From assembly GCA_963807605.1 (NCBI GenBank), contig CAWECG010000001.1, forward strand, positions 352,001 to 416,000: DNA of 64,000 bases, in the 5' to 3' direction. A program made the translations under genes and the position numbers. The notes under the pieces were generated by a model. That model saw only the letters and a list, made by a program, of their open reading frames with translations, did not search any database and was not told where the DNA came from. This document shows, in pieces, positions 1 through 60,510 of this stretch. Source of the DNA: Candidatus Bathyarchaeota archaeon (GTDB lineage Archaea > Thermoproteota > Bathyarchaeia > 40CM-2-53-6 > RBG-13-38-9). The stretch's first letter is position 1; each line of letters opens with the position of its first letter.

Positions 1-145
1 CAATTTCCAGAGCTCGCACCAGTAGTACCACACACAAAGAAATTGTTAGAACGACGGTTCAAATTCAGGCGCTCGCACCATTGATGCCACACACACCACA
101 TTTTTCGACCGAACGACGACGGCTCAAGTTCACTCGTCTACACCA
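1..145 (+). repeat. Three tandem tRNA-3'-like CACCA sites (1-21 cut by window edge, 56-80, 121-145) with CA-rich tails
   Basis: GGTTCAAATTCAGGCGCTCGCACCA and GGCTCAAGTTCACTCGTCTACACCA are both 25 nt; period 59-65 bp. Confidence 0.8.
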
Positions 146-201
146 AAAATAAGACCGCAAGTCTCTTATTCGGAGCTCTCAACTTCATGACCGGTTGATC
201 T

Positions 202-738
202 GTGACCATGACCAATGTTCTAAATAATGTGGACCTTGACAAGATTGCGCAGACAGTTGCAGGCGGGAAGAAAGACAAAAGCACCCTTAGGAAGCCAGTA
301 AAACTGCAAGGTGAATGGAACCTAGATCCCGCTAAAGGCTACCAGTTCAAAACCGAGCTGTCATACGAGAAGGGCAAACAGGTTATTGAGATAGATTCTC
401 CTTCGTTTATGGGAGGATCTGGGAACAGACTCGGTCCAATGGCGTATTGCGTAGCAGGCGAAACGTCGTGTTTCATTGCCACGTTCGCAAGCGTTGCAGC
501 AGAACAAGGCATTAAACTGACCAAACTGGCAGTCGATGCTCAATGCAGCATCAATTGGGCAAAATCATTCGATGTAGCAGATGAACCAATCAATGAGGGT
601 ATTAGCTTTCAGATCGACGCGCAGAGTGATAATGCAGACAAAGAGCGACTTCAAGAGATAGTGAAGATGACAATGGAGCGATGTCCAGCAATGTACAGCA
701 TGACCCATGTGATCAAGGTTGATGCCCGAATCAAGTGA
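202..738 (+). CDS. OsmC/Ohr-like family protein
   Basis: DSPSFMGG..GP, SCF and RCPA cysteine motifs. Confidence 0.8.
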   Translation: MTMTNVLNNVDLDKIAQTVAGGKKDKSTLRKPVKLQGEWNLDPAKGYQFKTELSYEKGKQVIEIDSPSFMGGSGNRLGPMAYCVAGETSCFIATFASVAAEQGIKLTKLAVDAQCSINWAKSFDVADEPINEGISFQIDAQSDNADKERLQEIVKMTMERCPAMYSMTHVIKVDARIK

Positions 739-842
739 ATGATGTCGTTACTCTGCCACAGATCCCTCCTCTCGTCTTCAGTTTTTTTGGTTCTGTTATT
801 CCCCACGCGGGTCGAGTGGTGCGCGCACTCACGAAACTATGC

Positions 843-931
843 GGTTCAAGTTGGGTGGGCCGCACCGTTGAGAACACACACAAAATTGTAACCCAGCAGT
901 TCAAATCCGGATGCTCTCACCAAGATGGCAC
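843..931 (+). repeat. Two tandem tRNA-3'-like sites (843-867, 898-922)
   Basis: GGTTCAAGTTGGGTGGGCCGCACCG; AGTTCAAATCCGGATGCTCTCACCA. Confidence 0.85.
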
Positions 932-1123
932 TGTAAGCGAAACGCACGGCTTCGGATGTCTTGCGTCCGAACATCACGTTAAGTTTTGAAAGGCCGAAGA
1001 AAAAGGAATCATTCTTGTCGATCAGGGTAAGATCGAGGCGGTCGGGGAGCGCCCCCGACAAGATCGAGCTCACTTCCAATCCGCCGAAACCCGCACCCAG
1101 GACAACCACGCGGAGCCCATCAT
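923..1123 (-). pseudogene. N-terminal fragment of an FAD-dependent sulfide:quinone oxidoreductase/NADH dehydrogenase-2-like protein
   Basis: VVVLGAGFGGL Rossmann motif and LTLIDKND; similarity stops at the CCA end of the repeat site. Confidence 0.7.
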
Positions 1124-1435
1124 GATTTATCTCCTTTTCAGGCAAGATTCTCTTAACCGTCAGGTAAGTCTGGGTTATGTTGCAAATAAGGGCTTCCAAT
1201 AGCGGTCGATGGCAGTCACATCCCGCTTAACGAATAGTTCTGTCACCGCCTTTAGTACCAGATCTCTGTTGTTCATTTGGATTTCCTCTAGTTCAACTAT
1301 TCGGCATGTTCCTGCTGGGTCTTACTTTGGCTTGTAGGCGGGTGTGAAGATGGCGTGGGTTGGGTAGATTTCTACTTGGGGGTCCCCTTGGATCCCGATC
1401 TGTTTCATGCCTGACATAAGTCTGGTCTTGACGAA

Positions 1436-1466
1436 GTCGTCGTCGCTCACCATCTATAGCACACAC
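1436..1466 (+). repeat. CTCACCA-core site with (GTC)n left arm and GCACACAC right arm
   Basis: GTCGTCGTCGCTCACCATCTATAGCACACAC. Confidence 0.75.
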
Positions 1467-1760
1467 GCATCCGAATCTTCTATAGACGTGAAACCTGAAA
1501 ATATTTAGAACCAAAGTGGATAATGCTGAGACGCGCGCGCGATGCGAAGAGGGCCTGATACGACGTAAGTGGTGGGACAATGATGCAATATAACGCACGC
1601 TCATAGTCATATCCTAGGTTACGCTAAATTTCGACTAGCACGCGAGTGACAGGATAGACCTGAGAAAGCGGCTGAGGCTCCAGCGCTCACTAAATTTAAA
1701 TCCAGAATAGTTGTATTATAAACACCTGCAACTGTAAGCCGCCTTAGGGGGATCCACAAA

Positions 1761-2120
1761 ATGGATAAAACGAAGCACGAACCCACAGAGAAAAAGCAAC
1801 CAGAAGCTACGCGCTTGGTAATATTCTTGCCGGGAATAGAGAGATCGACTGAGAAAACACTTCGAGTCGCCGCTGTGACCGACGAGGGAAAGATCGATAC
1901 TACCAGAGATGACACCGTGGAACTCTCAATAAACAATGAGGGTCGCATGCGCTTCAAGGACTCATCAAAAAATACGCAACTCAAATTGATTAATGGAGAA
2001 GCAAATGCGACGGTTATATCAGATCAGTCACATGGAGTCTCAATCTTCAAAGCCAGGTGGATAGGTGGGAAGACACCCCTTCAGCCAATACAAGTAACTT
2101 CTATCTATGTTCCTGGATGA
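1761..2120 (+). CDS. Hypothetical protein
   Basis: 119-aa ORF, TATA-like TTATAA upstream, (GC)4 run just downstream. Confidence 0.55.
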   Translation: MDKTKHEPTEKKQPEATRLVIFLPGIERSTEKTLRVAAVTDEGKIDTTRDDTVELSINNEGRMRFKDSSKNTQLKLINGEANATVISDQSHGVSIFKARWIGGKTPLQPIQVTSIYVPG

Positions 2121-2140
2121 GTATGTTTTGCAGCGCGCGC

Positions 2141-2320
2141 TTTACGTAATTTCACATGATCTTACACAAAAAGACACAACTTTACACACATAACCCAAAG
2201 AATTTTTTTTGTATTCAAAATTGTGTGTTTTTATGCGTTTTCACATAAAACTTTCCTTACCAATACTGTGAAATTATGTGTCCAATGTTGTAAAGTTATG
2301 TGGTTTTGCGTATTGTATAG
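2141..2320. repeat. 10-bp-phased repeat array with inverted halves around an A/T centre
   Basis: AC at 2144, 2154, 2164, 2174, 2184; centre CCAAAGAATTTTTTTT; TGTG units in right half. Confidence 0.6.
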
Positions 2321-2538
2321 GTGCTGTCTTACTGTGCCATGGTCATTACCGTGGACAACATCGAGAAGACGCTATTAGTGCCATGACTCCCTGTACTGTG
2401 TGAGCGCGCGCGAAATATTTCCAATGTGTATAGAGACCCTAATGATCATGCTAGCTTATCCATAGAATGTGTGCCCTAATGGTTGCCATTCATCATTAGA
2501 AACTGATAGTTAGAGTGATTCACGCCTGAAGATCTGAG

Positions 2539-2584
2539 GCGAGCTTTAGCGAGCAATATTGTGTGTGCGCACCACTAGACACAC
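2539..2584 (+). repeat. Degenerate S-module plus CTCACCA-family site
   Basis: GCGAGCTTTAGCGAGC..GTGTGTGCGCACCACTAGACACAC. Confidence 0.65.
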
Positions 2585-5900: not shown

Positions 5901-5922
5901 GTGGTGCTAACCGGCTAAGGTT

Positions 5923-6352: not shown

Positions 6353-6435
6353 GCGTGCGTAGCGAGCAGTTATCATTGGTGGTGGTGGGTGGTGTGTCCC
6401 TTGGTGAGAGCATCCGAAATTGAACCGTTAGGCTC
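6353..6435 (-). repeat. S-module, (GGT)n, AGGGACAC arm and tRNA-3'-like site (6402-6426)
   Basis: Minus strand reads CCTAACGGTTCAATTTCGGATGCTCTCACCAAGGGACACAC. Confidence 0.9.
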
Positions 6436-6440: not shown

Positions 6441-6767
6441 TTAGCGCGCGCTAGAACGCACGCGTCTTCTTGGGATACTCTGGTATTCTCTAGACAATTT
6501 CCTTAACTGTCTTATGAGGCTGCCAACTTTCTTTTTTCTGAGTTTGTCTTTTCCAACTGTTTGTTGGACAATCTCTTGGAGGTTGTATTTGAGGAATTTA
6601 CTTATCGAGAGGGTGGGATTTTGTTCGACAAGTGCGTGGAGAGCGCTGTCAACTATGATGAATTTAGCGTCTTTTTTGAAAAGGGGATGCATGACTGAGT
6701 CGATCATCTTGTTTAGCTGGCCTTTCGAGTAAGTTCTACCTTGTGTTTCGTCAGCCAAGAGCAACAC
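6441..6767 (-). CDS. Hypothetical protein, C-terminus runs into a (GC)n run
   Basis: 108-aa ORF ending RVRSSAR* at 6444-6451. Confidence 0.4.
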   Translation of the reverse strand: MLLLADETQGRTYSKGQLNKMIDSVMHPLFKKDAKFIIVDSALHALVEQNPTLSISKFLKYNLQEIVQQTVGKDKLRKKKVGSLIRQLRKLSREYQSIPRRRVRSSAR

Positions 6768-7520: not shown

Positions 7521-8646
7521 GAGCTTCTTGCAATATTATATTTTCTGTGTTAATTTTGTGAACTGGATTGGTGACCGCATTTTATCGATGTGTCCGTGCT
7601 TGATCGCGGATAAGGCAGTTGCCAGTAGAGCCAGCAGACAGAGAAGTACATGTGATATGACGTTTCTTAGGCCGCGTGTTCGAAGCTGAGACAATCCGAA
7701 GTGTGTCTTGAGTCTTGAGAATGTTCTCTCCACTGAGGATCGACGTTTATACAGTTGTTTCAGACGGGCAGGTCCGTGTGAGCGGAACTTCCGGTCGATT
7801 CGTAGAACCTGTTTGCCCTTCATCTGGTTTCTAGGGTAAGGTATGATTGGTTCTATGCCCATAGATCTTGCCTTGTCTCTGAAAGCTTCGCTGGAGTATT
7901 GTGAGTCTGCAGTCATGCTCTTCCACCTATGTTTCTTCTTCAATGCTTTATGGAGGAGGTGGGGTGCAACTTTTTTCTCATTTACATTTGCAGGTTCTAT
8001 GGTGACTGCCCGCGGCATCTCGCTGATGGTGTCTACAGCAAGGTGTATGCCGTAGCCTAAGATCACGTTTCTACCTTGTTTTCGTAATCTGGCTTCAGAA
8101 TCGGATAATCCACACTGGGTATTGTGAGGATCTCTTCGACTGTAAGCTTTGATGAATGTGACGTCTAACGCTAGGATTTCAGAGTCCAGAATGTCCATGT
8201 GGTCAAGCTGTTTGATCAGACGGTTCATGAGGCGGTGAAATCCTTGAGGGCCTATTCTACGTCGAAACCTCAGAAGTATTGATGGGTGATATGGATTCTC
8301 TGATTCCTTGATGTCGCAGAGTTTGCAGAGTTCACCGTCGCTCCATAGAAGTCGGTATAGTTCCTCGTAGCTTTCTATGTGTCTTAGCCGTTTGACAAGC
8401 TCTGCTTTGAACATTCCAAGTAAATTTCTATGGGGTCTGCCGACGCTGCTTCTTCTTCCATAGCTTCTTTCTAAGACTTGTTCTACAAACGTTAAATCCA
8501 AAGCCTGAAACAGATCATACAGAGCCTTACACTCGCTCACTTCTTTTTCACCAGAAACGGCATGAGTGGGTGTAAAGCTCATCGATCTTATGATCAAAAA
8601 CACGTATACATCTTCATGTTAAGCCCAAGAATATTGCAAGAGGCTA
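7521..8646 (-). mobile_element. Insertion sequence, IS5/IS1182-like, 1126 bp, copy 1
   Basis: Terminal inverted repeats AGCYTCTTGCAATATT; GCGCGC on both sides; same length and ends as 29542-30667. Confidence 0.92.
7536..8603 (-). CDS. DDE transposase (DUF772 + DDE_Tnp_1 type)
   Basis: ALDVT, ADSQY, YKRRSSVERTFSRLK motifs. Confidence 0.92.
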   Translation of the reverse strand: MFLIIRSMSFTPTHAVSGEKEVSECKALYDLFQALDLTFVEQVLERSYGRRSSVGRPHRNLLGMFKAELVKRLRHIESYEELYRLLWSDGELCKLCDIKESENPYHPSILLRFRRRIGPQGFHRLMNRLIKQLDHMDILDSEILALDVTFIKAYSRRDPHNTQCGLSDSEARLRKQGRNVILGYGIHLAVDTISEMPRAVTIEPANVNEKKVAPHLLHKALKKKHRWKSMTADSQYSSEAFRDKARSMGIEPIIPYPRNQMKGKQVLRIDRKFRSHGPARLKQLYKRRSSVERTFSRLKTHFGLSQLRTRGLRNVISHVLLCLLALLATALSAIKHGHIDKMRSPIQFTKLTQKI

Positions 8647-9994: not shown

Positions 9995-10831
9995 TCAGAT
10001 TCCTTTTAGGGCCAGGACTTCTTTGGCAGGTTTTCTATCTTTGTTGCAGCTGATCAATCGCGGAGCATCCAAGAAACGCAGTTCATATCCCAAGTCCTCG
10101 TAGAGTTTGCATATTCTTGGGGTTGCCTGATTGGAGAGTACAACCGGGCCGGAATGCTCTGTCAACCAATTTGCCAGGCGCACCTGATCGTCCCAGGAGA
10201 ACCCTTCCTTAGAGTACTGGGTAAATATCACATCATAAGGCGGATCCGCATACACAAAATCATCTCGAGAAAGTGAGACCTTCTCGAAATCTCCGGTTGT
10301 AAACTCCCATTCTTGGAAAACCCGTTTGTACGGGGTAAAGTCGTGTGCGTAGTTGATCTTTTGGTATCGACCAAAGGGAACATTAAATTCCCCTGACCGG
10401 TTAAACCGGCAAAGCCCATTATAGCAGGTCCTATTAAGATAATAGAATAACTCAGCCGCTTCTTTGCTGCTGGCTTTTCCAGTCTTTACAAGTTGATTGA
10501 ATCGTCTTCGATGCTGATAGTAGAGTTTTCTATTGTTAGCCAGGGGTATGTCTGTTACAAGGCCCTTCTTGAGCCTTTGAAAGAAGTTTATGGCGTGATT
10601 GTTGATGTCATTAAGAAGAGCCTGAGCAGGCATTAGGCCTAGAACAACAGCAAGACCCCCACACAGCGGCTCAACAAGCCTACGGTCTCTGTAAGGCTCC
10701 CAGATTGGTCTCAGATAAGGAACAAGCCATCTCTTTCCACCAGCCCACTTCAACGGGGGTCTAAGCGATACACTCTCGTAATGGGAACGGTGTGAGGTCT
10801 GGCTCAAGCTTGACTCCATTACGATTGACAC
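9995..10831 (-). CDS. Dam-family (D12 class) N6-adenine DNA methyltransferase, copy 1
   Basis: LKWAGGK, LVEPLCGG, YYLNRTCYNGL.R.N, ADPPY. Confidence 0.93.
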   Translation of the reverse strand: MSIVMESSLSQTSHRSHYESVSLRPPLKWAGGKRWLVPYLRPIWEPYRDRRLVEPLCGGLAVVLGLMPAQALLNDINNHAINFFQRLKKGLVTDIPLANNRKLYYQHRRRFNQLVKTGKASSKEAAELFYYLNRTCYNGLCRFNRSGEFNVPFGRYQKINYAHDFTPYKRVFQEWEFTTGDFEKVSLSRDDFVYADPPYDVIFTQYSKEGFSWDDQVRLANWLTEHSGPVVLSNQATPRICKLYEDLGYELRFLDAPRLISCNKDRKPAKEVLALKGI

Positions 10832-10895: not shown

Positions 10896-10920
10896 AGTAC
10901 AATTCCAGGTGCTCTCACCA
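10896..10920 (+). repeat. tRNA-3'-like site abutting a truncated gene
   Basis: AGTACAATTCCAGGTGCTCTCACCA. Confidence 0.75.
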
Positions 10921-11231
10921 GTCAGAGCCACAATGCCAAGTCTCCGCTGAACCTCTTCACTCTGCACACCCTCAGACCGTGCAAACCTGACAGCCTCACC
11001 CAAAGCACTCGTAATAGTGGAAAGATGATTCTTAGTACAGGGAATACAAGCCACATCCTTCAAGGTTGGGTAGGGATTCTTAACTACTGACACAGGCGCA
11101 ACCACCACTTTGGTATCTGTATACTCACTACGTATCTGTGAAAGCCGTTTTTCAAGCTCTTTTGAAGCAGACTCCAGCTGTCTCTCTAAAGACTCGGACA
11201 TTACGCCTTCACACAGTACCAAGGGTGCCAT
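10921..11231 (-). pseudogene. Hypothetical protein truncated at the CCA site
   Basis: Coiled-coil plus ACIPCTKNH; ORF reads into the repeat. Confidence 0.45.
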
Positions 11232-13754: not shown

Positions 13755-14621
13755 ATGAAACATGTGGTTAAATTCCAAGTCTTAACTGAAAGGCAGGAGT
13801 CGAGATTGCGTCAAACCTTAGGTATAACTCGTTTCGACACTACTGTTTCACTTAGACCCCCGCTTAAATGGGCTGGTGGTAAGAGATGGCTTGTTCCTCA
13901 CCTCAGGCCAATTTGGGAACCTCATAGAAATCGTCGGCTCGTTGAACCTCTGTGCGGCGGGCTTGCTGTTACCTTGGGCTTGATGCCTACTAGCGCTCTT
14001 CTTAATGACATCAACAATCACGCCATAAACTTCTTTCAAAGGCTCAAGAAGGGACTTGTGATAACCGTTCCCATGGAGAATAATCAAAAACTCTACTATC
14101 AGCATCGAAAACGATTTAATGAGCTTATCAAGACTGGCAGAGCTAACAGTCAAGAATCTGCCGAGTTATTTTATTATCTTAATAGAACTTGTTACAATGG
14201 ACTATGTCGTTTCAACCGGTCTGGAGAATTTAACGTACCTTTTGGACGGTACAAGAAAATCAATTACGTACGCGATTTCACCCCCTATAAACAAGTTTTC
14301 AAGGAATGGCTGTTCACAACAGGAGATTTCGAGGATGTCTCTTTAGATCCGAATGATTTTGTGTACGCAGACCCACCTTACGATGTGGAATTCACCCAAT
14401 ACTCCAAAGAAGGATTCTCATGGGAGGACCAAGTGCGTCTGGCTAAGTGGCTCACAAAACATTCTGGCCCAGTTGTACTTTCCAATCAAGCCACTCAGAG
14501 GATATGTGGACTGTATGGTGAGTTGGGGTACAGCTTGCGTTTCTTGAACGCGCCTCGAATGATTAGTTGTAAGGGAGATAGAACTCCCGCTAGGGAAGTC
14601 TTGGCTCTGAGAGGTATTTGA
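13755..14621 (+). CDS. Dam-family N6-adenine DNA methyltransferase, copy 2
   Basis: Same motifs as 9995-10831; close paralogue. Confidence 0.93.
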   Translation: MKHVVKFQVLTERQESRLRQTLGITRFDTTVSLRPPLKWAGGKRWLVPHLRPIWEPHRNRRLVEPLCGGLAVTLGLMPTSALLNDINNHAINFFQRLKKGLVITVPMENNQKLYYQHRKRFNELIKTGRANSQESAELFYYLNRTCYNGLCRFNRSGEFNVPFGRYKKINYVRDFTPYKQVFKEWLFTTGDFEDVSLDPNDFVYADPPYDVEFTQYSKEGFSWEDQVRLAKWLTKHSGPVVLSNQATQRICGLYGELGYSLRFLNAPRMISCKGDRTPAREVLALRGI

Positions 14622-14794: not shown

Positions 14795-16081
14795 TTGATG
14801 AAGATGCCTCGAAAGGTCGAGAAGTGGGCAGACATAGTCCGACAGCTTGGGCTAGACATATCAAAACCAGTCAATCCCGTGACTGCGAAACAAATCAAGG
14901 AAATCACTCACGAAGAACCTAGGCTCATGGCTAAGATGGATACTATAGAAAGCCTTCCATCGATTTTCAGAGAGAATGGGCTTTTCTTACTACCCGCAAG
15001 CAGAACCGAGTATTTAATTGTGAAAGGCAAAGGCTACCACAAGTTAGAAGATTTGCCCACCAATGTCTTGGTACATGAGACTCGTTATCTCTTTCCGTCA
15101 TCTGCATTAGGTGTTCAAAGCGAGGGAATTTACCTTGATTATGCGTACTCTTCTGGGTTGATAGGAAAGATCAGCGGTGGCGGCAACCTGATACTCGCGT
15201 TCCGCGGGAGAAGAACGACTCCAAGATTCAGTTTCAATGTAAGCGAACAGGTCATTAGGGTCGATGGGGCGCAAATCGAGGTAGATGGCGCATATGAGAG
15301 TTCTGAAGAAGTTGTGCTGGTGGAATCCAAACTCGGTATCCCCAGCTCGTTCAATATCCGACAGCTTTACTATCCCTACAGGACGTTTAACGATAGAAAA
15401 CATCCAAGGAACTTTTTCTTCTGTTTCGAGCAGATCCGAAATGAGTACTTGTTTTGGGAGTATGATTTTAGACCACATACGAGTTTCGAGTCTATCGAAC
15501 TTTTGCGCGCGTTAAGATGTCAAGTGAAAGTAACAAATCCCGTTACTGCGGATGATTACAGGGATGTAATGCCTGCCAGAAAAATCATCCCGCCTCAGGC
15601 CGACTCCGTCGATAAGATAATTGAGCTTCCATTCAGAATTTCCGAAGGATACGACACATCTGAGAAGATGACAAGAGCCTTTGGATTTGTTCAACGACAG
15701 AGTTCGTATTACCGACAAGCCGCTGAATTGTTGGGACTGGTGGAGTCAAAAGATGACAGGTACGCGCTCACTGACTCGGGAGAGCGCTATATCAAGTTGC
15801 TGCCAGAAGAAAGGAACAACTACATCTGCCGCCTGCTACTCAAGTTTCCCATTATGAATGATATATTCCTCCAATTATCTATCAAACGGGGCAGCCATGT
15901 CACCAAGCAGAAAATTATAGAGATCATTAGGGAACGTTCACAGTTGACGGGCACGACCCTCACAAGACGTGCCCAGACGATTATCTCGTGGTTTAAGTGG
16001 ATAAGAAACAATTTAGGAATCGTTGAAGTCGACAGAAAAGGCAATGTTTGGATCTCGAAGCAATTACCACAGTCTCAATGA
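14795..16081 (+). CDS. Putative type II restriction endonuclease (DUF6996/DUF6997-like)
   Basis: EPRLMAKMD, QIEVDG.YE, VESK, FNIRQLYYPYR, PQAD, RQSSYY; directly downstream of the MTase. Confidence 0.75.
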   Translation: MMKMPRKVEKWADIVRQLGLDISKPVNPVTAKQIKEITHEEPRLMAKMDTIESLPSIFRENGLFLLPASRTEYLIVKGKGYHKLEDLPTNVLVHETRYLFPSSALGVQSEGIYLDYAYSSGLIGKISGGGNLILAFRGRRTTPRFSFNVSEQVIRVDGAQIEVDGAYESSEEVVLVESKLGIPSSFNIRQLYYPYRTFNDRKHPRNFFFCFEQIRNEYLFWEYDFRPHTSFESIELLRALRCQVKVTNPVTADDYRDVMPARKIIPPQADSVDKIIELPFRISEGYDTSEKMTRAFGFVQRQSSYYRQAAELLGLVESKDDRYALTDSGERYIKLLPEERNNYICRLLLKFPIMNDIFLQLSIKRGSHVTKQKIIEIIRERSQLTGTTLTRRAQTIISWFKWIRNNLGIVEVDRKGNVWISKQLPQSQ

Positions 16082-19379: not shown

Positions 19380-19875
19380 CCATATTTTGTATGTTGCAGT
19401 TTATTGTTTGTTACTTTCTATGCTGCTTACTGCCAGTTTTGTATTAGTTTTAATTGTTTTTTAGGTCAAGTTATGTCTTTCTTTATGTCTTTGTTTGTTT
19501 TGTTCTAAGTTGGTTTGTATTGTTTAGGTTCAAGTTTCCCAGCATGTTTGGTATTGTGGATTTTCCGGTTTTTCCATGTGTTGATTTAGGTTTGAAATAA
19601 GGCATTGTCTATTCCTGTATTGTATGGTAAACCAAAAACCCCGCAAACCATACATAACATAAACCACAGAAACCAGGAACCGGTAAACTTCCAACTATCA
19701 CTGCTATACCATGCTGCTGCTGGTATGTTCTGCGAGCGTAGCGAGCAGTTATTTTGGTGGTGGTGGTGGTGTGTCCCTTGGTGAGAGCATCGTGATTTGA
19801 ACCGTTAGAGCAGACTATTTTTTTGTGTGTGTGTGCCATAGCTGGTGAGCACCACCACCACCACCACCACCAAGG
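19380..19875 (+). repeat. Long non-coding element, fullest copy B
   Basis: T-rich arm, phased AAACCA arm, S-module 19732-19746, tRNA-like site 19779-19803 (-), second core 19843-19849, (ACC)7; homologous to 5515-5900 and inverted 42985-43093. Confidence 0.85.
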
Positions 19876-21034: not shown

Positions 21035-21117
21035 GCGAGCGTAGCGAGCCATTAGATTATGTTGTGTGTGTGTGTGTGTGTGTGTGTGTGCTCACCAAGG
21101 GACACGATGCGCGCGCG
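21035..21117 (+). repeat. S-module, (TG)14, CTCACCA-AGGGACAC site and (GC)n run
   Basis: Read directly from sequence. Confidence 0.9.
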
Positions 21118-23980: not shown

Positions 23981-24036
23981 GTGTGTGCCTTAGCTGGTGA
24001 GCACACACACTAAAACGACTGGCTCGCTACACTCGC
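23981..24036 (-). repeat. CTCACCA site plus S-module at the end of a duplicated segment
   Basis: GTGTGTGCCTTAGCTGGTGAGCACACACAC..GGCTCGCTACACTCGC. Confidence 0.9.
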
Positions 24037-24090
24037 CGTCGATACTCAGACAAAGAACAGACTCTGAAGTTTTTCTAATAAGCCCCAAGC

Positions 24091-25606
24091 TTATCCAGTT
24101 TGTTTTGTGCCACATTGACTGCAGAATTCAGAGCCAGGAGATAATTCGGCTCCACACTTGACGCAGGAAGTGGGAACTTCTACAAACTGCTGACTTAGCG
24201 TCGCTTGTTTGGGTCTATGCGTGATTCTTGATTCTCGTCTCCGAAGGAAAACCAAAACGACAACAGCAGCTACAACTACTCCCACGATTCCATAAATGTA
24301 TAAGTTGTCAATCACGAACCCCCCAATCGCTACGGCAGGAACATCCTCTCCGTTAGCGATTGCTTCTTGTGACAGTTTGATGTACCTGTCCGCGTAAGGG
24401 CTGCCAGGATACAGTGTCTGGACCTCTTGAAATTGCTGGATCGCTAGTGAGTAGTGCTGATTCCAGTAGTAATTGAGCCCCTGCGCCCAGTAAGTATCTA
24501 TTGGTCCTCTGGTATTCTGCACGTTTACCTGGCTCATGAAGATTTTTGCAACATTTATTGGTATTAAAAAGTTCACGTTGCTCAGTTCGCCCCCTCCCAC
24601 AGGGTTTCCCGTTCCAAGGGTAGCTATTCCGATAACGTTTCCTTGAGCGTCGATTACCGGTCCGCCGCTGTTCCCATGATGGATTGATGCGTCAGTCTGA
24701 ATGAAGGTGATTTGGCCCTGACTCGTCTGGGCTGGCTTCAATGCGCTGACGGTTCCCTGAGTTATCGTCGGTTCAAGGCTCTCCAGCGAATTTCCTGAAG
24801 ATTGGGCTTGAGACACTATGCCGGGGTATCCGATGACCACTAATGGTTCTCCAACTTGGACTGTTTCCGAGTCTCCGAGACGTATAGTCGGCAAGCTGTA
24901 ATCTACATTTACCTTGATAATGGCTACATCCATCGCACCGACTTGGCCGTTGGTTACTACATTCGCGATAGCTGCATTAGCTACGATCTTTGTAATGGGC
25001 CCGTTGGATTGGGAAAGCGGGAACACGACAGCGTCGAGCACCTGCTCGTTGGTGAATTTCCCATTTGTAAGAAAGTACTGTTCAAAGGCTGCTTCAATGT
25101 TGTTGTACTGGTCTTGAGTAATCTGCCCGTTCGTCACAAGAGACTGGTAATTCTGGGCACATTGTTGGGCGAGAGAACTTATGTACTCTGCCTGGCTTTC
25201 TTGGGAGGTTGCAACATGGGCGTTTGTTACTATGTAACCGTCTGGCGTGACTATGAAGCCTGACCCCCAGGCCCCCCGTTTGAGACTGGGAGGTTAAATA
25301 CTTCAGCTGGTGAATATGGTTTCACAACATAATTACCCTGGCTGTCCGTACTGAGGGCGGTGTCATATTTGGGACCTGTGAAGTTGGCTGTATACTGATT
25401 GTAGATTAGGACCACAGCCGGTTCGTTCAGATTGGCAATCATCTCCGTGGTCGTAGGCTCGGAGCGGTTTTGGGCAGAGACTTGCCCGACCGCTGAGAAA
25501 TACGTGAGCGTTAAACCCAGCAGTACTATTAATGCAACTTTCAGTCTTAGCGTATCGAGACGATCCTTTGAAGATTTAGTTTGATATTTGTACTTAACCT
25601 TCCCAT
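24091..25606 (-). pseudogene. Trypsin-like (S1C) serine protease with TM helix and zinc ribbon, frameshifted
   Basis: SGFIVTPDGYIVTNAHV, DVAII, GNSGGP; frameshifts near 25265 and near the start. Confidence 0.8.
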
Positions 25607-25870
25607 GAAATTAGTATTATGTTTTATCCCCAACATCTTTCAGTATGTTTAGGTCTTTGAAGTATACGTCAGCTGGGTAGAGATAACCTACCCCTTGGCG
25701 TGGTCGCTGGTAGTTCCAGTAGTTCACGAACTGTTGATGGGTCGGATACATCCAGGCTTCGTATTGGTAGGCTTTGGAAGGCTTCTATCTTTCCTATGGT
25801 TGATGGCGCGCGCGTAAAGACTATAATACGCGTCAAGGGCGAATCACAGCCACAAGGAAGTAAAAGCAAG

Positions 25871-26712
25871 ATGAACTGGAAAATCCATGTCTTGTATTTA
25901 GGAGAGCTAACCACTCCTAAAGGGCTTTTCACACCAGGCCTCGACGCGAACCTACTTCTTAAAGTGCCATACCTTGGATATCTACTAGTTTCCGGGTCGA
26001 GAAAGAATTCCTTGTGGACACCGGTATCAACTCGCGTTTCGTCATCGAAAAAGCATGGGCCGGAGCTCCTGCAAAAGGGGGAGAGAAATTTCTCCTCGAT
26101 GCATTGGAGAAAAATGTTGCCCGCACTGAAGAGATCGAGGCAGTAATCTACACTCATCTACACAACGATCATGCGGGGAACTGCCATCTCTTCCCTATGG
26201 CCCGACATGTTTTTCATTACGACGAATGGGGTGAATTAGTAGACCCACTTCCCTCGATGCGGATCCGAAAACTCTTCGACCCCGACGTCATTCCTGTTCT
26301 TCAAAAATCTCGCTGCCTCAAAATAACTGATGACGGCGAGTTTACAGAAGGTATTCGACTTTACCACACCCCCGGTCACACCATCGGGGGACTGACCGTA
26401 GCAGTGGATACTTCCAATGGGACATACATCATCCCCGGAGATATCGTGAATATCTATCAGAATCTCTTCCCCAAAATGTCGTGGATGTTAGATCTTCAAG
26501 CAAAACGCATCAAGACAACACCCGCTCCAGAACCTTACGGCCCATTAGGCGTCCCCTCTGGGCTTGTGTACGATCACTATGCATGGTATCGGAGTATCTG
26601 GAAAATCCGCGGTATGCTCAAAAGCCCAAAGCACCTGTTGCCCTGCCACGAACCCGCAATATCAGGCAAAACCTTCCCAGGCGATTCAATAGACCTCGAG
26701 ATTCCTGAATGA
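25871..26712 (+). pseudogene. MBL-fold hydrolase (AHL lactonase-like), frameshift near 26005
   Basis: MNWKIHVL..PYLGYLL then VDTG, THLHNDHAG, TPGHT. Confidence 0.8.
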
Positions 26713-26856
26713 GAGAAAACATAGGGAGCGCTGAATTAATCATCAACACGATCAGTTTCAAGATTCCATATCGTTTGAAGCCTGAAGATCTATGGTGCAT
26801 TTGAATTAGCTTCTGCGTGAGAGCAGCGCGCGCTACGCTAAGAAATAGTGGAATCA

Positions 26857-26877
26857 GTCCCTTGGTGGGCACACACC
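26857..26877 (-). repeat. Degenerate CTCACCA site
   Basis: GTCCCTTGGTGGGCACACAC. Confidence 0.7.
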
Positions 26878-26957
26878 AACTAATCCAATCTGTCGCTAGT
26901 GCTTATTACGCGCACAAGTTTGTTCTCACCGACATGGCAGCAAAGACACGAATACTC

Positions 26958-27833
26958 TCATAGGCCATCAGAACGCCCACCGTTTAATGGGATTACTGAG
27001 CCATTCATGTATGATGATTCTTCGCTGCATAAGAATAATATGACATTGGCAACATCTTTCGGCTTACCAATTCCTAGTGGGATGCGTGATTCATAGTACT
27101 TCATCCATTTTCCATCATCTTTGAGGCGCAAATCATCATTCATAGGGGTATCAATTATAGTAGGCATCACCACATGTGTTTTTACGTTGTATTGAATCAG
27201 TTCTTTCGCAGCGGTCTTAGCCATTCCTATAACTCCTGCTTTTGATGCGCTGTATGCAATTTGACCTATATTTCCCTCGGCAGCTGTACTGCTAATACAG
27301 ATAATGCGTTTGTCAGGAAATGTTCGCGGAGGCGGAACTGGTTTTCCACTAGCCTTTGAGGTTTTTATCTGAGCGTCAGGCTCCTTGATCCACTTCTTCA
27401 CACACGTTTGCATGAACAAGAAGAGACCTTTAAGATTTGTATCGACCACATCACCAAAAGTCTCTTCCGAAATCTTGGCAATCATACCATCCTTCCTGAT
27501 GCCAGCACAGGCGACAAGATAATCAAGGTCACCAAACCTATCAAATACCTTATCCACACAAGCTTCAACATCGTCTTTTTTCCTTACGTCACCAGTAAAT
27601 GCGATGCATTCGCTGCAGTGTTTTTTTATTTCTCTGCGGGCTGATTCAACAGTTTCACCATTTACATCAAATATGGCAACTTTCGCTCCTCTCATCGCAA
27701 ACTGGATAGCTGTCTCTTTTCCTATGCCGCTGGCCCCACCTGTGATTAGAACAACTTTATTCTCAAAGCCCATTGGTTTGGCCTCCCGTCTTAATGCATC
27801 GATTGAAGTATGCTTATCCGTATTTATTATCAC
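26958..27833 (-). CDS. Short-chain dehydrogenase/reductase, FabG-like (likely start MGFEN ~27773)
   Basis: TGGASGIG, YSASK. Confidence 0.9.
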   Translation of the reverse strand: MIINTDKHTSIDALRREAKPMGFENKVVLITGGASGIGKETAIQFAMRGAKVAIFDVNGETVESARREIKKHCSECIAFTGDVRKKDDVEACVDKVFDRFGDLDYLVACAGIRKDGMIAKISEETFGDVVDTNLKGLFLFMQTCVKKWIKEPDAQIKTSKASGKPVPPPRTFPDKRIICISSTAAEGNIGQIAYSASKAGVIGMAKTAAKELIQYNVKTHVVMPTIIDTPMNDDLRLKDDGKWMKYYESRIPLGIGKPKDVANVILFLCSEESSYMNGSVIPLNGGRSDGL

Positions 27834-27880
27834 TCTTTCACTCGTCTCTCTCGTTTATGCTGGAAGGATGCTGTTCTTCA

Positions 27881-27905
27881 GTGTTTGTCCCATAGCTGGT
27901 GCGAC
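27881..27905 (-). repeat. Degenerate CTCACCA-family site
   Basis: GTGTTTGTCCCATAGCTGGTGCG. Confidence 0.55.
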
Positions 27906-28134
27906 TAGAAACTTTCAGGTAAATGTTTACGATTTCAAGAAGAAATACTATGGGAGAACTGCAAGGCCCTAGAAGTTAGTTTGACGAACTATCCCACTGT
28001 GTTATGAATCACCAGAAGCAAACCAAGGAATCGCACATCTAATCTCATAATGTAGAGAGGAGAGAGGGGTTTCAGGAGATTCTTCCCTGACATGCATGAG
28101 AGGGATACCTGAGCAGGATAGGGATAGGATATTC

Positions 28135-28185
28135 TGTGTGTGTGCCTTATCTGGTGAGAGCATCCGGATTTGAACCTTTAGAGCA
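28135..28185 (-). repeat. tRNA-3'-like site (28152-28176) with GGCACACACAC arm
   Basis: Minus strand reads GGTTCAAATCCGGATGCTCTCACCA-GATAAGGCACACACAC. Confidence 0.9.
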
Positions 28186-29541: not shown

Positions 29542-30667
29542 TAGCCTCTTGCAATATTCTTGGGCTTAACATGAAGATGTATACGTGTTTTTGATCATAA
29601 GATCGATGAGCTTTACACCCACTCATGCCGTTTCTGGTGAAAAAGAAGTGAGCGAGTGTAAGGCTCTGTATGATCTGTTTCAGGCTTTGGATTTAACGTT
29701 TGTAGAACAAGTCTTAGAAAGAAGCTATGGAAGAAGAAGCAGCGTCGGCAGACCCCATAGAAATTTACTTGGAATGTTCAAAGCAGAGCTTGTCAAACGG
29801 CTAAGACACATAGAAAGCTACGAGGAACTATACCGACTTCTATGGAGCGACGGTGAACTCTGCAAACTCTGCGACATCAAGGAATCAGAGAATCCATATC
29901 ACCCATCAATACTTCTGAGGTTTCGACGTAGAATAGGCCCTCAAGGATTTCACCGCCTCATGAACCGTCTGATCAAACAGCTTGACCACATGGACATTCT
30001 GGACTCTGAAATCCTAGCGTTAGACGTCACATTCATCAAAGCTTACAGTCGAAGAGATCCTCACAATACCCAGTGTGGATTATCCGATTCTGAAGCCAGA
30101 TTACGAAAACAAGGTAGAAACGTGATCTTAGGCTACGGCATACACCTTGCTGTAGACACCATCAGCGAGATGCCGCGGGCAGTCACCATAGAACCTGCAA
30201 ATGTAAATGAGAAAAAAGTTGCACCCCACCTCCTCCATAAAGCATTGAAGAAGAAACATAGGTGGAAGAGCATGACTGCAGACTCACAATACTCCAGCGA
30301 AGCTTTCAGAGACAAGGCAAGATCTATGGGCATAGAACCAATCATACCTTACCCTAGAAACCAGATGAAGGGCAAACAGGTTCTACGAATCGACCGGAAG
30401 TTCCGCTCACACGGACCTGCCCGTCTGAAACAACTGTATAAACGTCGATCCTCAGTGGAGAGAACATTCTCAAGACTCAAGACACACTTCGGATTGTCTC
30501 AGCTTCGAACACGCGGCCTAAGAAACGTCATATCACATGTACTTCTCTGTCTGCTGGCTCTACTGGCAACTGCCTTATCCGCGATCAAGCACGGACACAT
30601 CGATAAAATGCGGTCACCAATCCAGTTCACAAAATTAACACAGAAAATATAATATTGCAAGAAGCTC
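29542..30667 (+). mobile_element. Insertion sequence, IS5/IS1182-like, 1126 bp, copy 2
   Basis: Same TIRs; flanks GCGCGC and ACGCGC. Confidence 0.92.
29585..30652 (+). CDS. DDE transposase
   Basis: Protein identical to 7536-8603. Confidence 0.92.
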   Translation: MFLIIRSMSFTPTHAVSGEKEVSECKALYDLFQALDLTFVEQVLERSYGRRSSVGRPHRNLLGMFKAELVKRLRHIESYEELYRLLWSDGELCKLCDIKESENPYHPSILLRFRRRIGPQGFHRLMNRLIKQLDHMDILDSEILALDVTFIKAYSRRDPHNTQCGLSDSEARLRKQGRNVILGYGIHLAVDTISEMPRAVTIEPANVNEKKVAPHLLHKALKKKHRWKSMTADSQYSSEAFRDKARSMGIEPIIPYPRNQMKGKQVLRIDRKFRSHGPARLKQLYKRRSSVERTFSRLKTHFGLSQLRTRGLRNVISHVLLCLLALLATALSAIKHGHIDKMRSPIQFTKLTQKI

Positions 30668-42907: not shown

Positions 42908-43077
<170 letters not shown>

Positions 43078-44949: not shown

Positions 44950-45074
44950 TCGTCGTCGTCGCCATAGCTGGTGAGCACACACACGAAATCAATACCAAGC
45001 GGTTCAATTCTAGATGCTCTCACCAACTAAGATGGGATATAGATAACTGGCTGTTTTGTGTGGTCACGTGGATG
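44950..45074. repeat. Divergent pair of sites (core 44969-44975 on -, tRNA-like 45001-45025 on +) plus extension shared with 59278-59318
   Basis: Read directly from sequence. Confidence 0.88.
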
Positions 45075-45150
45075 CTGTTTTTTTGACGTGAACATCCACA
45101 TAGACATTTCTAGGAAGAAATTGGGTTTAGCGCGCGCAAAAACAGATGCT

Positions 45151-56485: not shown

Positions 56486-56596
56486 GCGCGCGCTAGCCTC
56501 CAGATTTGAACCGTTAGAGGAGAGTGTGTGTGCTCACCAGCTAATGCACATACACATGCCCCTTGGTGAGCGACGACGACGTTCACCAAGGGATAC
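56486..56596. repeat. Cluster: (GC)4 run, truncated tRNA-like site and three CACCA cores in alternating orientation
   Basis: Cores near 56533(+), 56564(-), 56583(+). Confidence 0.88.
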
Positions 56597-57639: not shown

Positions 57640-57710
57640 TGTCCCTTGGTGAGCACACACAAAACCCACTCTAACGGTTCAAATTTGGGTGCTCTCACGA
57701 GCTAGGACAA
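57640..57710. repeat. Divergent pair of sites (core 57647-57653 on -, tRNA-like 57676-57700 on +)
   Basis: Read directly from sequence. Confidence 0.88.
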
Positions 57711-58575: not shown

Positions 58576-58692
58576 CCTTTGCACTATCGCACATATGATA
58601 TGGAACTCTGATGTAAACCAAGCATTAAGTCTCGCCAGTTACCGCCTGAACTCTTTTTGCCATAAGAGTTGATTGAACTCTTGAAAAGGTTA

Positions 58693-58738
58693 GCGCGCGT
58701 TTTTTTTGTGTGTGCTCACCAGCTGGGTCACACACACA
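58693..58738 (+). repeat. (GC)n run plus CTCACCA site
   Basis: GTGTGTGCTCACCAGCTGGGTCACACACAC. Confidence 0.85.
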
Positions 58739-58855
58739 AGCAAGGACGGATTCCAGGTTGACCGGCTAATTCTCAGGGATCCCTCCCTTCACTTGTCAAG
58801 TTATGAAAGCCCATATATTGTCAACCCGTTATAATTATGAGTTGGCGGAAAGAAA

Positions 58856-59149
58856 ATGCCTCACTACATTGTCTTGGTGAAACTAACTGAGAAGGGAAGA
58901 CAAAACTTCAAGCAGGGATGGATGAAGGACAGGCCGCAAGTAAAAGCGCAGGTTCAGAAGATGGGTGGAAAAATGACAGGATACATGACGTTCGGTCAAT
59001 ACGACAGTGTGGAGCTTCTAGAACTACCGGACGACAAAGCTGCTGCGCGATTCGCAATGATGGCCGGAGCAACTGGCCTGATAAGAACCGTGACTCTCAA
59101 AGCCTTCTCAGAAGACGAAGTTGACAAGATGGTCCAGGAAATTCTTTAG
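58856..59149 (+). CDS. GYD domain protein
   Basis: MP.YIVL.KLT..G, TFGQYD, TLKAF. Confidence 0.85.
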   Translation: MPHYIVLVKLTEKGRQNFKQGWMKDRPQVKAQVQKMGGKMTGYMTFGQYDSVELLELPDDKAAARFAMMAGATGLIRTVTLKAFSEDEVDKMVQEIL

Positions 59150-59199
59150 ATTCCTGACCATCTCGTTTCCTTTTTTTATCGCCTCAGCCGTCTGGCTTT

Positions 59200-59318
59200 T
59201 GTGTGTGTGCCCTAGCTGGTGAGAGCACCGTAATTTGAACCGGCAGATTCTTTGTGTGTGTGCTCACCAAGGGACAGGGGATATGGATAACTGGGTGGTT
59301 TTGGTTTCCACGTAGATG
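59200..59318. repeat. Divergent pair of sites (tRNA-like 59217-59241 on -, core 59263-59269 on +) plus extension
   Basis: Read directly from sequence. Confidence 0.9.
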
Positions 59319-59420
59319 TTAGATAAGGCTAGGTGGGATTGTCTAGCCGATTTTGTTCTTCAGGGTTTTCTGTTGATGTTCAGTTTTAACTTATATTAGC
59401 TTTCTTTTCAAGATATGTTG

Positions 59421-59996
59421 TTAATAGCTATTAATTTTTTGACTTATTAGTGAACTTATTAGTTTGGCAGTGTCGCTTTCTATTCTTTCTAGATCCGCGT
59501 CGTTAGGTCGGCCTCTTATGTCTCCCAGTCTGCCTTTTGTACTGAACTCTTCAGATCCATGAAATTCACCTATGACATACCATTCTGCTTTTACGTTGAA
59601 TCCGATATGTTCAAAGACTTGGCGCATGATTTTGCCGGCGGGGGTAGCTTCATCTATTCCAGTATGAACGCCTGAGTAAGTACAGAATATGATCGCATTT
59701 TTGCCCGGAACCTTGGGAGCGGACAGCTTAACGTATCCCTTACTCCGATAATGCATCAACTTTCGCTTGAGGAAATCCATCATAGGAGGAGCCGGCAACC
59801 TTTCATACGGAGGTGCACCGATACAGACTAGGTCATAATTGAAAAAGTCTTCTTGTTCCGCTTCATCAACCTTCTCAACAATGGGTGTTACTCCCGTCTT
59901 TCTCATACCCTTCGATATAGCTTCCTTAACCTTCTCCGTGTTTCCAGTTTTCGACCAATAAATAATCAAAGCTTTGAATTGTTCTATTTCTTTCAT
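59421..59996 (-). CDS. Flavodoxin-like protein
   Basis: YWSKTGNTEKV, IGAP, FCTYSG. Confidence 0.85.
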   Translation of the reverse strand: MKEIEQFKALIIYWSKTGNTEKVKEAISKGMRKTGVTPIVEKVDEAEQEDFFNYDLVCIGAPPYERLPAPPMMDFLKRKLMHYRSKGYVKLSAPKVPGKNAIIFCTYSGVHTGIDEATPAGKIMRQVFEHIGFNVKAEWYVIGEFHGSEEFSTKGRLGDIRGRPNDADLERIESDTAKLISSLISQKINSY

Positions 59997-60185
59997 GATT
60001 ATCGTCGCTAATGTCTTTACTCCTTCTATTTATAGAATAGGGCATTCAAATCAATTCTGACTTATAACAAGTCACATCATCGATCTGACGAATTCATAAG
60101 GTGTGTATTACTGTTATTGTTTTCCATCTCATGCCTTGCTTACTTTTCTGAAGGCAACTATGTCTTGGCTTCTTGAAGAGCGCGC

Positions 60186-60319
60186 TAGAGCCTGCCACAC
60201 TTACCAGTGAAGTATTTGGACTACCAACGAACAAGCTTGAGATCTTAACACCCTACCTAACATTAGCAGGACTAGTCGCTGCAGTATCCGCAGTAGTGGT
60301 TAGGAGAAGAAGAGCCTAA
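60186..60319 (+). pseudogene. Orphan C-terminal sorting/anchor tail
   Basis: PTNKLEILTPYLTLAGLVAAVSAVVVRRRRA*, beginning after GCGCGC 60180-60185. Confidence 0.6.
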
Positions 60320-60378
60320 CCAAATATTCCTCCTCTTTTTTCGTAAATTCCTAGGATAGTTTCTTTTTCGTCGTATAG

Positions 60379-60510
60379 GCGAGCGTAGCGAGCCAGTTGT
60401 TTTTTTGTGTGTGCCGTAGTTGGTGAGAGCACCCTAATTTGAACCATTAGGTTTTAGTTTTTTTGTGTGTGTGCATTAGCTGGTGAGCGACGACGACACG
60501 ACGACGCGAC
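60379..60510 (-). repeat. S-module plus two tandem sites (tRNA-like 60421-60445, core 60481-60487)
   Basis: Period 60 bp; same layout as 19732-19870. Confidence 0.9.

Follow-up and report, generated by a model that had tools for sequence, protein, structure and literature searches.

tRNA 3'-end mimics in a bathyarchaeal accessory island as probable target sites of a Cas1-family transposase

The stretch of DNA analysed here (the window) covers 64,000 nucleotides of a Candidatus Bathyarchaeota archaeon genome and contains a family of short repeats that mimic the 3' end of a tRNA, with the general form GGTTCAA-N13-CACCA. The exact pattern has seven matches in the window, compared with an average of 0.01 (maximum 1) over 100 dinucleotide shuffles, and 15 matches are found when up to two mismatches are allowed, against 5.4 expected. 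Thirteen of these 15 are full family copies (starts at 56, 121, 843, 898, 6402, 10896, 19779, 28152, 42908, 45001, 57676, 59217 and 60421); the matches at 24455 and 27148 are without any other feature of the family and are due to chance. One mimic cut by the window edge and one truncated mimic, both first noticed from the letters alone, are also real, and the 25-nt register is fixed throughout. Across the whole genome the spacing is 25 nt in 46/52 loosely matched copies. In 103 loci from other genomes, where a T-loop-like word and C(T/G)CACCA served as anchors and a gap of 0 to 30 nt was allowed, 155 copies are in the 25-nt register and 1 is elsewhere, although these loci were fetched by a fixed-spacing pattern and only the secondary copies among them are an unbiased sample. 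The repeats with invariant 25-nt spacing described in the sequence-only reading are thus confirmed, both by the shuffle test and in these larger samples. There are about 60 copies per genome, with approximately 58 here, drawn from 68 regular-expression hits of which some are chance matches.

Each full mimic spans 32 nt, composed of an 18-nt leader and a 14-bp segment that corresponds to a target-site duplication (TSD), and is referred to as occupied when an element end follows this segment. The edge-cut mimic (1..28, plus strand; start of the 25-mer at C1:351997) has its TSD at 15-28 and a (CA)4 tip from 29, and is unit 2 in a four-unit tandem array with a period of 54-65 nt. The mimic at 56..87 (plus; leader 56-73, TSD 74-87, CGCACCA type) is occupied, with a (CA)4 tip from 88, and another (CA) tip ends 19 nt upstream of it. 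The last array unit is a degenerate mimic (121..152, plus) with no element tip after it and an OsmC-like gene (202-738) next. Another degenerate copy, with CCG in place of CCA (843..874, plus), is occupied by a (CA)4 tip from 875, and an unoccupied mimic (898..929, plus) lies 15 nt inside this tip. On the minus strand, the mimic at 6395..6426 (leader 6409-6426, TSD 6395-6408) is occupied by a (CAC)n-tipped end and has a (GC)4 tract (6444-6451) just upstream. The unoccupied, degenerate mimic at 10896..10927 (plus; two mismatches) adjoins a D12 methyltransferase gene, with which it forms a module that is 88% identical in the same-genus genome G001; the G001 counterpart has the 70-bp mimic unit twice in tandem, with a (CGA)n tip after it. 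A (CAC)5 tip occupies the mimic at 19772..19803 (minus), with a (CA)6 tip and a solo 14-mer (19836-19849) upstream of it on that strand. The mimic at 28145..28176 (minus; leader 28159-28176, TSD 28145-28158) is occupied by a 4,143-bp cassette (24002..28144, minus) with (CA)n and (TG)n tips, whose flanking 14-mers (23988-24001 and 28145-28158) agree at 13/14 positions; its cargo encodes a trypsin-like peptidase, a metallo-beta-lactamase-fold protein and a short-chain dehydrogenase, and no transposition gene was found in it.

In the right half of the window, a mimic with a TCCAAAT-type loop word (42908..42939, plus; two mismatches) is occupied by a (CA)17 tip (42940-42974). The mimic at 45001..45032 (plus) lies 17 nt inside a (CA) tip and is followed, 1 nt past its TSD, by an end without a microsatellite (from 45034), like the one that terminates the Cas1-bearing element of the relative G022; the surrounding module of about 70 nt is 92% identical in G001. 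CTAAC and the first 13 nt (56500-56512) are left of the truncated mimic (56500..56517, minus), which breaks off a few nucleotides from a (GC)4 tract (56486-56493). The remaining copies all lie inside (CA) tips: an unoccupied one with CGA in place of CCA (57676..57707, plus) by 14 nt, one occupied by a (CA)5 tip (59210..59241, minus) by 11 nt, and one (60414..60445, minus) by 18 nt, the last being occupied by a (CA)4 tip followed by a sub-terminal motif common to these ends. In addition, the window has about 17 leaderless junctions with a solo 14-mer. At 21091..21104 (plus) the order is (TG)14 tip, 14-mer and (GC)4 tract; further ones start at 1446, 2568, 16201, 16862, 18162, 48116, 48168, 56533, 58715 and 59263 on the plus strand, and those on the minus strand are marked by TGGTGAG at 19843, 23995, 44969, 56564, 57647 and 60481.

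No tRNA gene was found in the window with ARAGORN or Rfam, every window mimic lacks a T stem, a 5' acceptor strand and a tRNA gene, and no real tRNA of this genome ends in the mimic sequence. The family consensus agrees with the real tRNA ends of this genome at no more than 18/25 positions, all of them generic, and so singles out no tRNA as the donor. The mimics could nevertheless act as RNA, either as 3' tags resembling a tRNA end that would serve RNA-templated copying or CCA-dependent processing, or as the 3' halves of split tRNAs, given that the CCA is encoded, that the T-loop word and the 25-nt tRNA-end register are kept, and that host tRNA genes are intron-rich, with only 9 found by ARAGORN without an intron search. 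We regard this as extremely unlikely. Pairing in the T-stem register is at the level of shuffled columns (47.7% of cells, compared with 50.9% in shuffles), RNAalifold predicts zero pairs for 13 copies, the variable columns are those that a tRNA fold would require to co-vary, and the CCA is mutated in two copies. Within 500 nt of the copies, 5' acceptor partners are limited to scattered chance 7-mers, and there is no recurrent family of 5' halves (27 hits versus 21 with a control pattern, none repeated). Neither the cloverleaf of a tRNA gene nor the T stem and partnered acceptor of a split-tRNA 3' half is therefore present. The earlier suggestions that the mimics come without a tRNA gene and that T-stem pairing is mostly lost are borne out, and the view of a sequence with tRNA 3'-end geometry that is read as DNA by a protein is supported, whereas nothing speaks for a CCA tag in RNA-templated copying.

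A candidate for such a protein is encoded elsewhere in the genome, by its one intact Cas1 gene (PF01867, E 1e-49). The 402-aa product of this gene (C3:803495-804700) matches the Methanosarcina mazei Cas1-family transposase (casposase) of PDB 6OPM, its best solved relative, from end to end, C-terminal HTH region included (E 5.7e-72). The gene lies in an element of about 9 kb with (CGA)n tips (C3:796435-805412), which is flanked by identical 14-mers starting CTCACCA (C3:796421-796434 and 805413-805426), has a mimic, that is, a leader, on one side only, and contains no internal mimic. Its nine larger ORFs besides Cas1 include a DUF5677 protein, a SIR2-like domain and an ATPase with an HTH. DNA_pol_B is absent from these nine, the two PolB genes of the genome being elsewhere, and the element is thus not a casposon in the strict, self-synthesizing sense, which requires an element-encoded family B DNA polymerase (Krupovic 2014). 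All six full-length casposase genes found (in G000, G022 and four other Bathyarchaeia MAGs) have a mimic 0.7-4.4 kb away that points into their element.

The anatomy of the mimics agrees with what is known of casposase targets. The A. boonei casposase requires the 14/15-bp TSD and 18 bp of the tRNA-Pro T-loop region, and reads TCAAATC 8 bp upstream of the TSD together with the first two TSD bases (PMC5137440, PMC6614799). In the mimics, TCAAAT(C/T) is found at -15..-9, likewise 8 bp before the TSD, in 46/52 copies of this genome and in 155/156 copies elsewhere, the latter sample being partly biased by the way it was fetched; positions -4..-1 keep TGCT, the TSD opens with C(G/T)CA, and its last 7 bp are free. 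By sequence, the mimics therefore carry a T-loop-derived word in a one-sided leader, at a fixed distance from the TSD. [quoted passage not shown] There, too, the first bases of this segment are important and its distal two thirds are unconstrained. In contrast to that site, the mimic stands alone without a tRNA gene, occurs in some 60 copies per genome and often lies inside element ends; it shares 7 nt of its duplication with the 'tRNA', the CCA being encoded, and this duplication opens with CT or CG instead of CC.

The mimics are very probably target sites of a casposase, used mostly by small cassettes without a transposase gene. An element end lies at, or 1 nt after, the end of the 14-mer in 10/14 copies in the window and in 96/118 copies in other MAGs. 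Besides the pair around the Cas1 element, six more elements, in other MAGs, lie between perfect 14-bp pairs; identity of 14-mer flanks is weak evidence because few 14-mer variants exist, except for the rare one that flanks the Cas1 element. Of eight elements compared, seven have ends that share only microsatellite tips of 8-15 nt in inverted orientation, and the eighth has 53-nt repeats; in most elements with perfect TSDs the tip is all that is common to both ends. Not all junctions are this simple: many of those in the window cannot be matched up as simple insertions, some tips are mismatched, the last 7 nt are often not the same in the two flanking 14-mers, the segment 57654-59262 has the same 14-mer inverted at its two flanks, and orthologous loci gave no clean pair of one empty and one filled site.

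Roughly one copy in two sits 5-25 nt inside an element end that has a microsatellite tip, and a tip ends within 30 nt upstream of the mimic in about 30 of the roughly 58 copies here and in 67/118 elsewhere. The complete elements L080-E2 and L116, both with perfect 14-bp duplications, have an internal mimic 32-33 nt from one tip. Such copies raise the alternative that the mimic is chiefly a sub-terminal part of element ends, where the casposase would recognize its own element, its likeness to a target being secondary and its copies passengers. Element L080-E1, with inward-facing mimic-like sequence in both of its 53-nt terminal repeats, indicates that some copies may indeed be enzyme-binding end parts rather than targets, and the orientation of the preceding 14-mer (direct in 14 copies, inverted in 9 in this genome) is roughly as expected if either kind of end can carry one. 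As a general account this seems improbable to us: the other half of the copies have unique or decayed upstream flanks, most copies are followed by a foreign end exactly after 14 bp and so are used as targets, mimics are absent from the ends of the Cas1-bearing element and of most perfect-TSD elements, and integration needs only the last 5 nt of a casposon end (PMC6614799). The two roles are compatible with each other.

Many archaeal elements integrate by tyrosine recombinases at tRNA 3' ends, and the mimics could accordingly be att cores left by such elements. An att-like arrangement does exist outside the window, where part of the 3' end of a real tRNA (C1:490645) recurs as two 26-nt copies at distances of 2.8 and 3.5 kb. 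For the mimics, however, this origin is very improbable, as the repeat at the junctions is a 14-bp duplication with inverted tips, starting inside the acceptor part, and not a 25-50-bp att core common to a circular element; the sites co-occur with casposase genes in six lineages, and their conserved bases match casposase determinants. A Pfam scan of 40 window ORFs gave no match to an integrase family. The sequence-only reading of an amplified, tRNA-derived att site was essentially right in that the mimics are an amplified integration site, but the recombinase is most likely a Cas1 casposase, with a 14-bp TSD that begins within the acceptor part, rather than a tyrosine integrase. Domestication is not borne out; the copies act like selfish landing pads, and many ride in element ends.

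A true tRNA end is used in five relatives. An intron-bearing tRNA, read as Gly-UCC, is present in 53/81 genomes of the order, and a microsatellite tip follows its 3' end in G021, G012 (two copies), G011, G008 and G080, starting exactly 14 nt after the C of CGCACCA in 4/6 junctions. The tRNA anticipated from the mimic's 3' sequence was thus not found in the host, where none has the exact end, but in relatives elements of the same class use a real tRNA-Gly whose register and CGCACCA TSD start are those of the mimic. The mimic itself probably descends from a tRNA end.

In the proposed model, the first 18 nt (GGTTCAAAT, five free positions, TGCT) would serve as a leader that positions the enzyme, and the last 7 nt, C(T/G)CACCA, would open the 14-bp segment that receives a staggered cut and is duplicated on element entry. 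The fixed 25-nt spacing would then reflect a set distance between recognition motif and cutting site, with the bases of the mimic probably read by this genome's own casposase. Incoming elements would mostly be small transposase-less cassettes tipped by (CA)n, (CAC)n or (GAC)n, presumably mobilized in trans by the sole intact casposase, and many would bring a landing site of their own, 5-25 nt inside one of the tips. As each insertion would supply the next site, tandem and nested stacks would arise, here forming the 64-kb accessory island. The M. mazei family-2 casposons, found at tRNA-Leu and at IR1 with solo-TIRs (PMC4779613, PMC6977970), resemble this system in their full-length casposase homology, in a 14-bp TSD that starts CGCA there and C(G/T)CA here, in the use of the same sequence at non-tRNA sites, in tandem insertions with one common TSD, in either element orientation and in end remnants left at sites. 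In contrast, the elements here are without PolB, end in microsatellites rather than long TIRs, are mostly cassettes of ordinary genes without Cas1, and have dozens of targets that travel with them.

It is conceivable, at somewhat less than even chances, that the landing site has become portable, with Cas1-mobilized cassettes carrying leader and TSD in one end, so that insertions chain and end stubs pile up into leader-repeat-like arrays. If so, these islands would be a natural Cas1-driven gene-capture platform in Bathyarchaeia and a living analogue of the proposed step from casposon sites with solo end repeats to CRISPR arrays. As in integron attC/attI arrays, cassettes of one or a few genes are stacked between short recurring sites into an accessory island, but here both a tyrosine recombinase and an attC fold are missing, target duplications with inverted element tips form the junctions, and the cassettes are oriented in both directions. 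At the CRISPR leader-repeat junction of Cas1-Cas2, a Cas1-family enzyme is likewise placed by an upstream leader and the adjoining segment is duplicated with each insertion, and short tandem units, with a period of 46-65 nt at several sites, occur here as well; in contrast, the leader here is also duplicated, because it arrives with the insert, and inserts have defined tips and reach kilobases. The arrays are not themselves CRISPR arrays: at most four of the 46-65-nt units stand in a row, their 'spacers' share a microsatellite and an A-rich stretch, and Rfam gives no CRISPR hit. The mimic is present in 7/12 genomes of the same family, compared with 0/8 from other families of the order, and in a search of 185,579 species genomes nearly all other matches belong to Bathyarchaeia.

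The repeated 25-nt pattern described in the sequence-only reading is real: GGTTCAA-N13-CACCA has seven exact matches in the 64-kb window, where shuffled sequence would give 0.01, and allowing up to two mismatches gives 15 matches, 13 of which form a single family of tRNA 3'-end mimics (those at 24455 and 27148 are chance matches outside it). Also genuine are two incomplete copies reported in that reading, one cut off by the window start and one truncated (56500-56512), and the spacing it called invariant is kept at exactly 25 nt in 46 of 52 copies found genome-wide with a loose pattern. For the source genome (2.65 Mb, five contigs, with the window at C1:352001-416000), we estimate around 58 family copies from 68 regex matches, some of them due to chance; the copies are grouped in islands, the densest of which is covered by the window. 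The conserved unit exceeds 25 nt and consists of a CTAAC-like word, GGTTCAAAT, five variable positions, TGCT, C(T/G)CACCA and seven further positions that come in few variants, and most copies are followed by a microsatellite, either (CA)n, (CAC)n or (GAC)n. The 14-mer beginning with C(T/G)CACCA is also found approximately 100 times in the genome without the upstream part, with (TG)n-type tracts flanking one side and (CA)n-type tracts the other. [quoted passage not shown] Tracts of (GC)4 or longer are also frequent in the window, with 19 in 64 kb (e.g. 6444-6451, 21109-21116, 45130-45137 and 56486-56493) whereas a given 8-mer would be expected about once; several of these tracts adjoin casposon junctions, and one is a few nucleotides from the break point of the truncated mimic.

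To our knowledge, only a handful of casposon target sites have been described, and those resembling tRNA ends are real tRNA genes that occur once per genome. The A. boonei casposase needs, as a minimum, a target made up of the 15-bp duplicated segment and 18 bp from the T-loop region of tRNA-Pro (PMC5137440); mutagenesis showed that the enzyme reads TCAAATC, located 8 bp upstream of the duplicated segment, together with the first two bases of the segment, the distal two thirds of which are dispensable (PMC6614799). The M. mazei casposase requires 4 bp ahead of the motif that starts the TSD and a block 12-17 bp upstream (PMC6977970, PMC4779613). In the mimic family, numbered from the leader-TSD border, TCAAAT(C/T) occupies positions -15 to -9, positions -9 to -5 are variable and TGCT lies at -4 to -1, while the TSD begins with C(G/T)CA and is highly diverse across genomes in its last seven positions. 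As in A. boonei, the TCAAAT(C) word is thus placed 8 bp before the TSD, the start of which is constrained and the distal part free. Because this register matches the published determinants, the conserved and free columns are those that would be expected for DNA recognition by a casposase, in agreement with the earlier suggestion of a protein-read DNA site with conserved ends and a free middle. The target of the same kind of enzyme here appears to be a free-standing look-alike, which retains just those bases that casposases are known to read and, in contrast to the known tRNA-gene targets, is present in dozens of copies and travels with cargo.

That the pattern lacks a tRNA gene was borne out, as neither ARAGORN nor Rfam (gathering threshold) detected one in the window, and a search of the genome for a tRNA with the family 3' end found none, the real tRNAs ending otherwise. 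The latter have introns and an encoded CCA; all pair at 5/5 positions of the T stem, and all have an acceptor stem rich in G+C, the 5' strand of which lies 65-180 nt upstream. The reported loss of T-stem pairing also stands: family copies form 0-4 of the five pairs, pairing in the T-stem register is found in 47.7% of cells compared with 50.9% in shuffles, and 5' acceptor partners are isolated chance 7-mers only. A functional RNA, including the CCA tag for RNA-templated copying that had been put forward as an alternative, is contradicted by these T-stem values and by RNAalifold, which gives no pair across 13 window copies. Split tRNAs, which would pair each mimic with a separate 5' half, are likewise contradicted, with no recurrent 5'-half family found. 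The att-site mechanism proposed earlier is contradicted in its tyrosine-integrase form, since none of the 40 window ORFs scanned matched an integrase family. These ORFs gave no match to Cas1 or PolB families either. The mimics should not be annotated as tRNA fragments or pseudo-tRNAs.

No donor tRNA can be named by similarity, as the family consensus matches the best real tRNA end of the genome at 18 of 25 positions; among 185,579 species genomes, tRNAs combining the family acceptor end with an intact T-stem start were found only in Rhizobiaceae and a few other bacteria, and these are unrelated real tRNAs. Another 25-mer that shows T-loop and CCA geometry has nine copies in the genome (e.g. 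C4:501230, C4:504495 and C3:1147919) and is unrelated to the mimics, since it sits in a multi-copy repeat with flanks conserved on both sides; read by eye, this repeat is probably a transposase-like coding sequence. The tRNA genes of this genome are unusually intron-rich, with some introns at non-canonical positions: ARAGORN finds 9 without and 31 with intron search, and Rfam 22, many of them 90-120 nt long. Outside the window, part of the 3' end of one real tRNA (C1:490645-490781) recurs as 26-nt copies at C1:487168 and C1:487844, 3.5 and 2.8 kb away; each of the two is joined to a GCGCG stretch, and they resemble the att repeats of an element that integrated through a different mechanism.

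A real tRNA gene is used in relatives. A conserved intron-bearing tRNA ending in CCCGGCGGCCGCACCA, with a putative UCC (glycine) anticodon as read from the Rfam alignment, is present in 53 of 81 genomes of the order, and a microsatellite tip (the short microsatellite at an element end) comes after its 3' end in G021, G012 (two copies), G011, G008 and G080. Of these six junctions, four have the tip starting exactly 14 nt past the C of CGCACCA, and in G021 the incoming end carries its own mimic; both copies of the tRNA in the source genome are unoccupied. The T-loop word has the same register in tRNA-Gly and mimic, and some mimics (window position 42908; L119 from another Bathyarchaeia genome) have a TCCAAAT or TCCGATT-type loop as in tRNA-Gly, which together suggest that the mimic descends from such a tRNA end.

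Casposons, the presumed evolutionary source of the CRISPR adaptation machinery, are represented in the source genome by a single intact Cas1 gene (C3:803495-804700) and fragments, one of them 11 kb ahead of the window. The encoded protein aligns along its entire length with the M. mazei casposase 6OPM (E 5.7e-72). The element carrying it (C3:796435-805412) has inverted (CGA)n tips at both ends and is bracketed by two identical 14-mers of a rare variant; a full mimic is present on one side only, and the other 14-mer is abutted by a (CA)n-tipped element. Its other ORFs encode a DUF5677 protein, a SIR2-like domain and an ATPase with HTH, with no PolB among them; the two PolB genes of the genome lie elsewhere. 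Five further full-length casposase genes, in G022 and four other Bathyarchaeia MAGs (47-81% identity), are each located 1.0-4.4 kb from a mimic pointing into their own element, and these elements are tipped by (CA)n or (CCG)n or have a non-microsatellite end. Among the six genes, casposase clade shows no clear covariation with T or G at the second TSD base.

An element end lies at, or one nucleotide after, the end of the 14-mer in 10 of 14 window copies, and a microsatellite tip ends within 30 nt upstream in 8 of 14. Genome-wide, about 30 of the approximately 58 copies sit 4-23 nt inside a tip, which is either alone or preceded by a 14-mer (direct orientation in 14, inverted in 9). Landing sites therefore arrive inside elements, which explains nesting and the tandem 46-65 nt units, such as the four that span the window start. 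Some copies may also serve as sub-terminal binding sites in element ends, a role compatible with their being casposase landing sites. In other Bathyarchaeia, 96 of 118 distinct copies from 81 loci are occupied, that is, followed by an element end after the 14-mer, and an upstream tip is present in 67. Other MAGs also contain complete elements flanked by perfect 14-bp duplications. At locus L080, the order is leader, TSD, 2.4-kb element, same TSD, 1.75-kb element and same TSD, and a mimic lies 32-33 nt from one tip in the second of these elements and in the 4.2-kb element of locus L116. A regex search returned no element with a mimic in both ends, the pattern being too strict to catch the element L080-E1, where direct alignment reveals a mimic-like sequence in both. 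In most elements the two ends have nothing but the microsatellite tip in common, consistent with the finding that the last five nucleotides of a casposon end suffice for integration (PMC6614799). Many junctions do not resolve into simple pairs, and pairing them all as simple insertions via identical 14-mers is ambiguous because the 14-mer comes in few variants. One mimic has the same 60-nt upstream flank in two genomes, the same-genus genome G001 (L005/L122/L180) and another MAG (L156), twice within one of them; read by eye, it appears to lie downstream of a ParB-like gene, and a different element, in one case Cas1-bearing, follows the 14-mer each time.

The mimic is found in 7 of 12 genomes of the same family, most of which also have casposase homologues, and in none of eight from the other families of the order. 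A scan of species genomes gave at least 103 matches, and among the matches listed almost all are from Bathyarchaeia MAGs (peat, soil and lake sediment). No paper among the top-ranked literature matches combined a casposon with a Bathyarchaeia term, a weak indication that the system is undescribed. The mimics offer a simple natural set of target variants for probing casposase recognition and a concrete case of how a leader-plus-repeat arrangement can multiply. In the widespread, uncultured Bathyarchaeia, mobile landing sites would also explain the build-up of large accessory islands, the cargo of which consists of ordinary metabolic, transport and defence-like genes.

The window ORFs include OsmC, proteases, three DDE transposases, two D12 methyltransferases, QueC, QueT, nitroreductases, an amidohydrolase, a dehydrogenase, a P-type ATPase, an ammonium transporter, a DEAD-box helicase, TrmO, flavodoxin and proteins of unknown function, and the clearest single cassette spans 24002-28144. 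Synteny with G001 yields no clean empty-versus-filled orthologous pair, since that genome matches the window only in gene-sized pieces spread over many small contigs. Two copies of one DDE transposase gene, with identical Pfam profiles (7536-8603, minus strand, and 29585-30652, plus strand), are inverted and 21 kb apart, both 91% identical to one G001 contig, and a third, different DDE transposase (62560-63453, plus strand) is located close to the end of the window. Paralogous D12 adenine methyltransferase genes (9995-10831, minus strand, and 13755-14621, plus strand), also inverted, bracket queC and queT and match the same G001 contig at 88% and 75%; one has a degenerate mimic at its upstream flank, and this gene-plus-mimic module recurs in G001. 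Adjoining a methyltransferase gene is an ORF (14795-16081, plus strand) that combines DUF6996, DUF6997, DUF7226 and an AAA-associated C-terminal domain.
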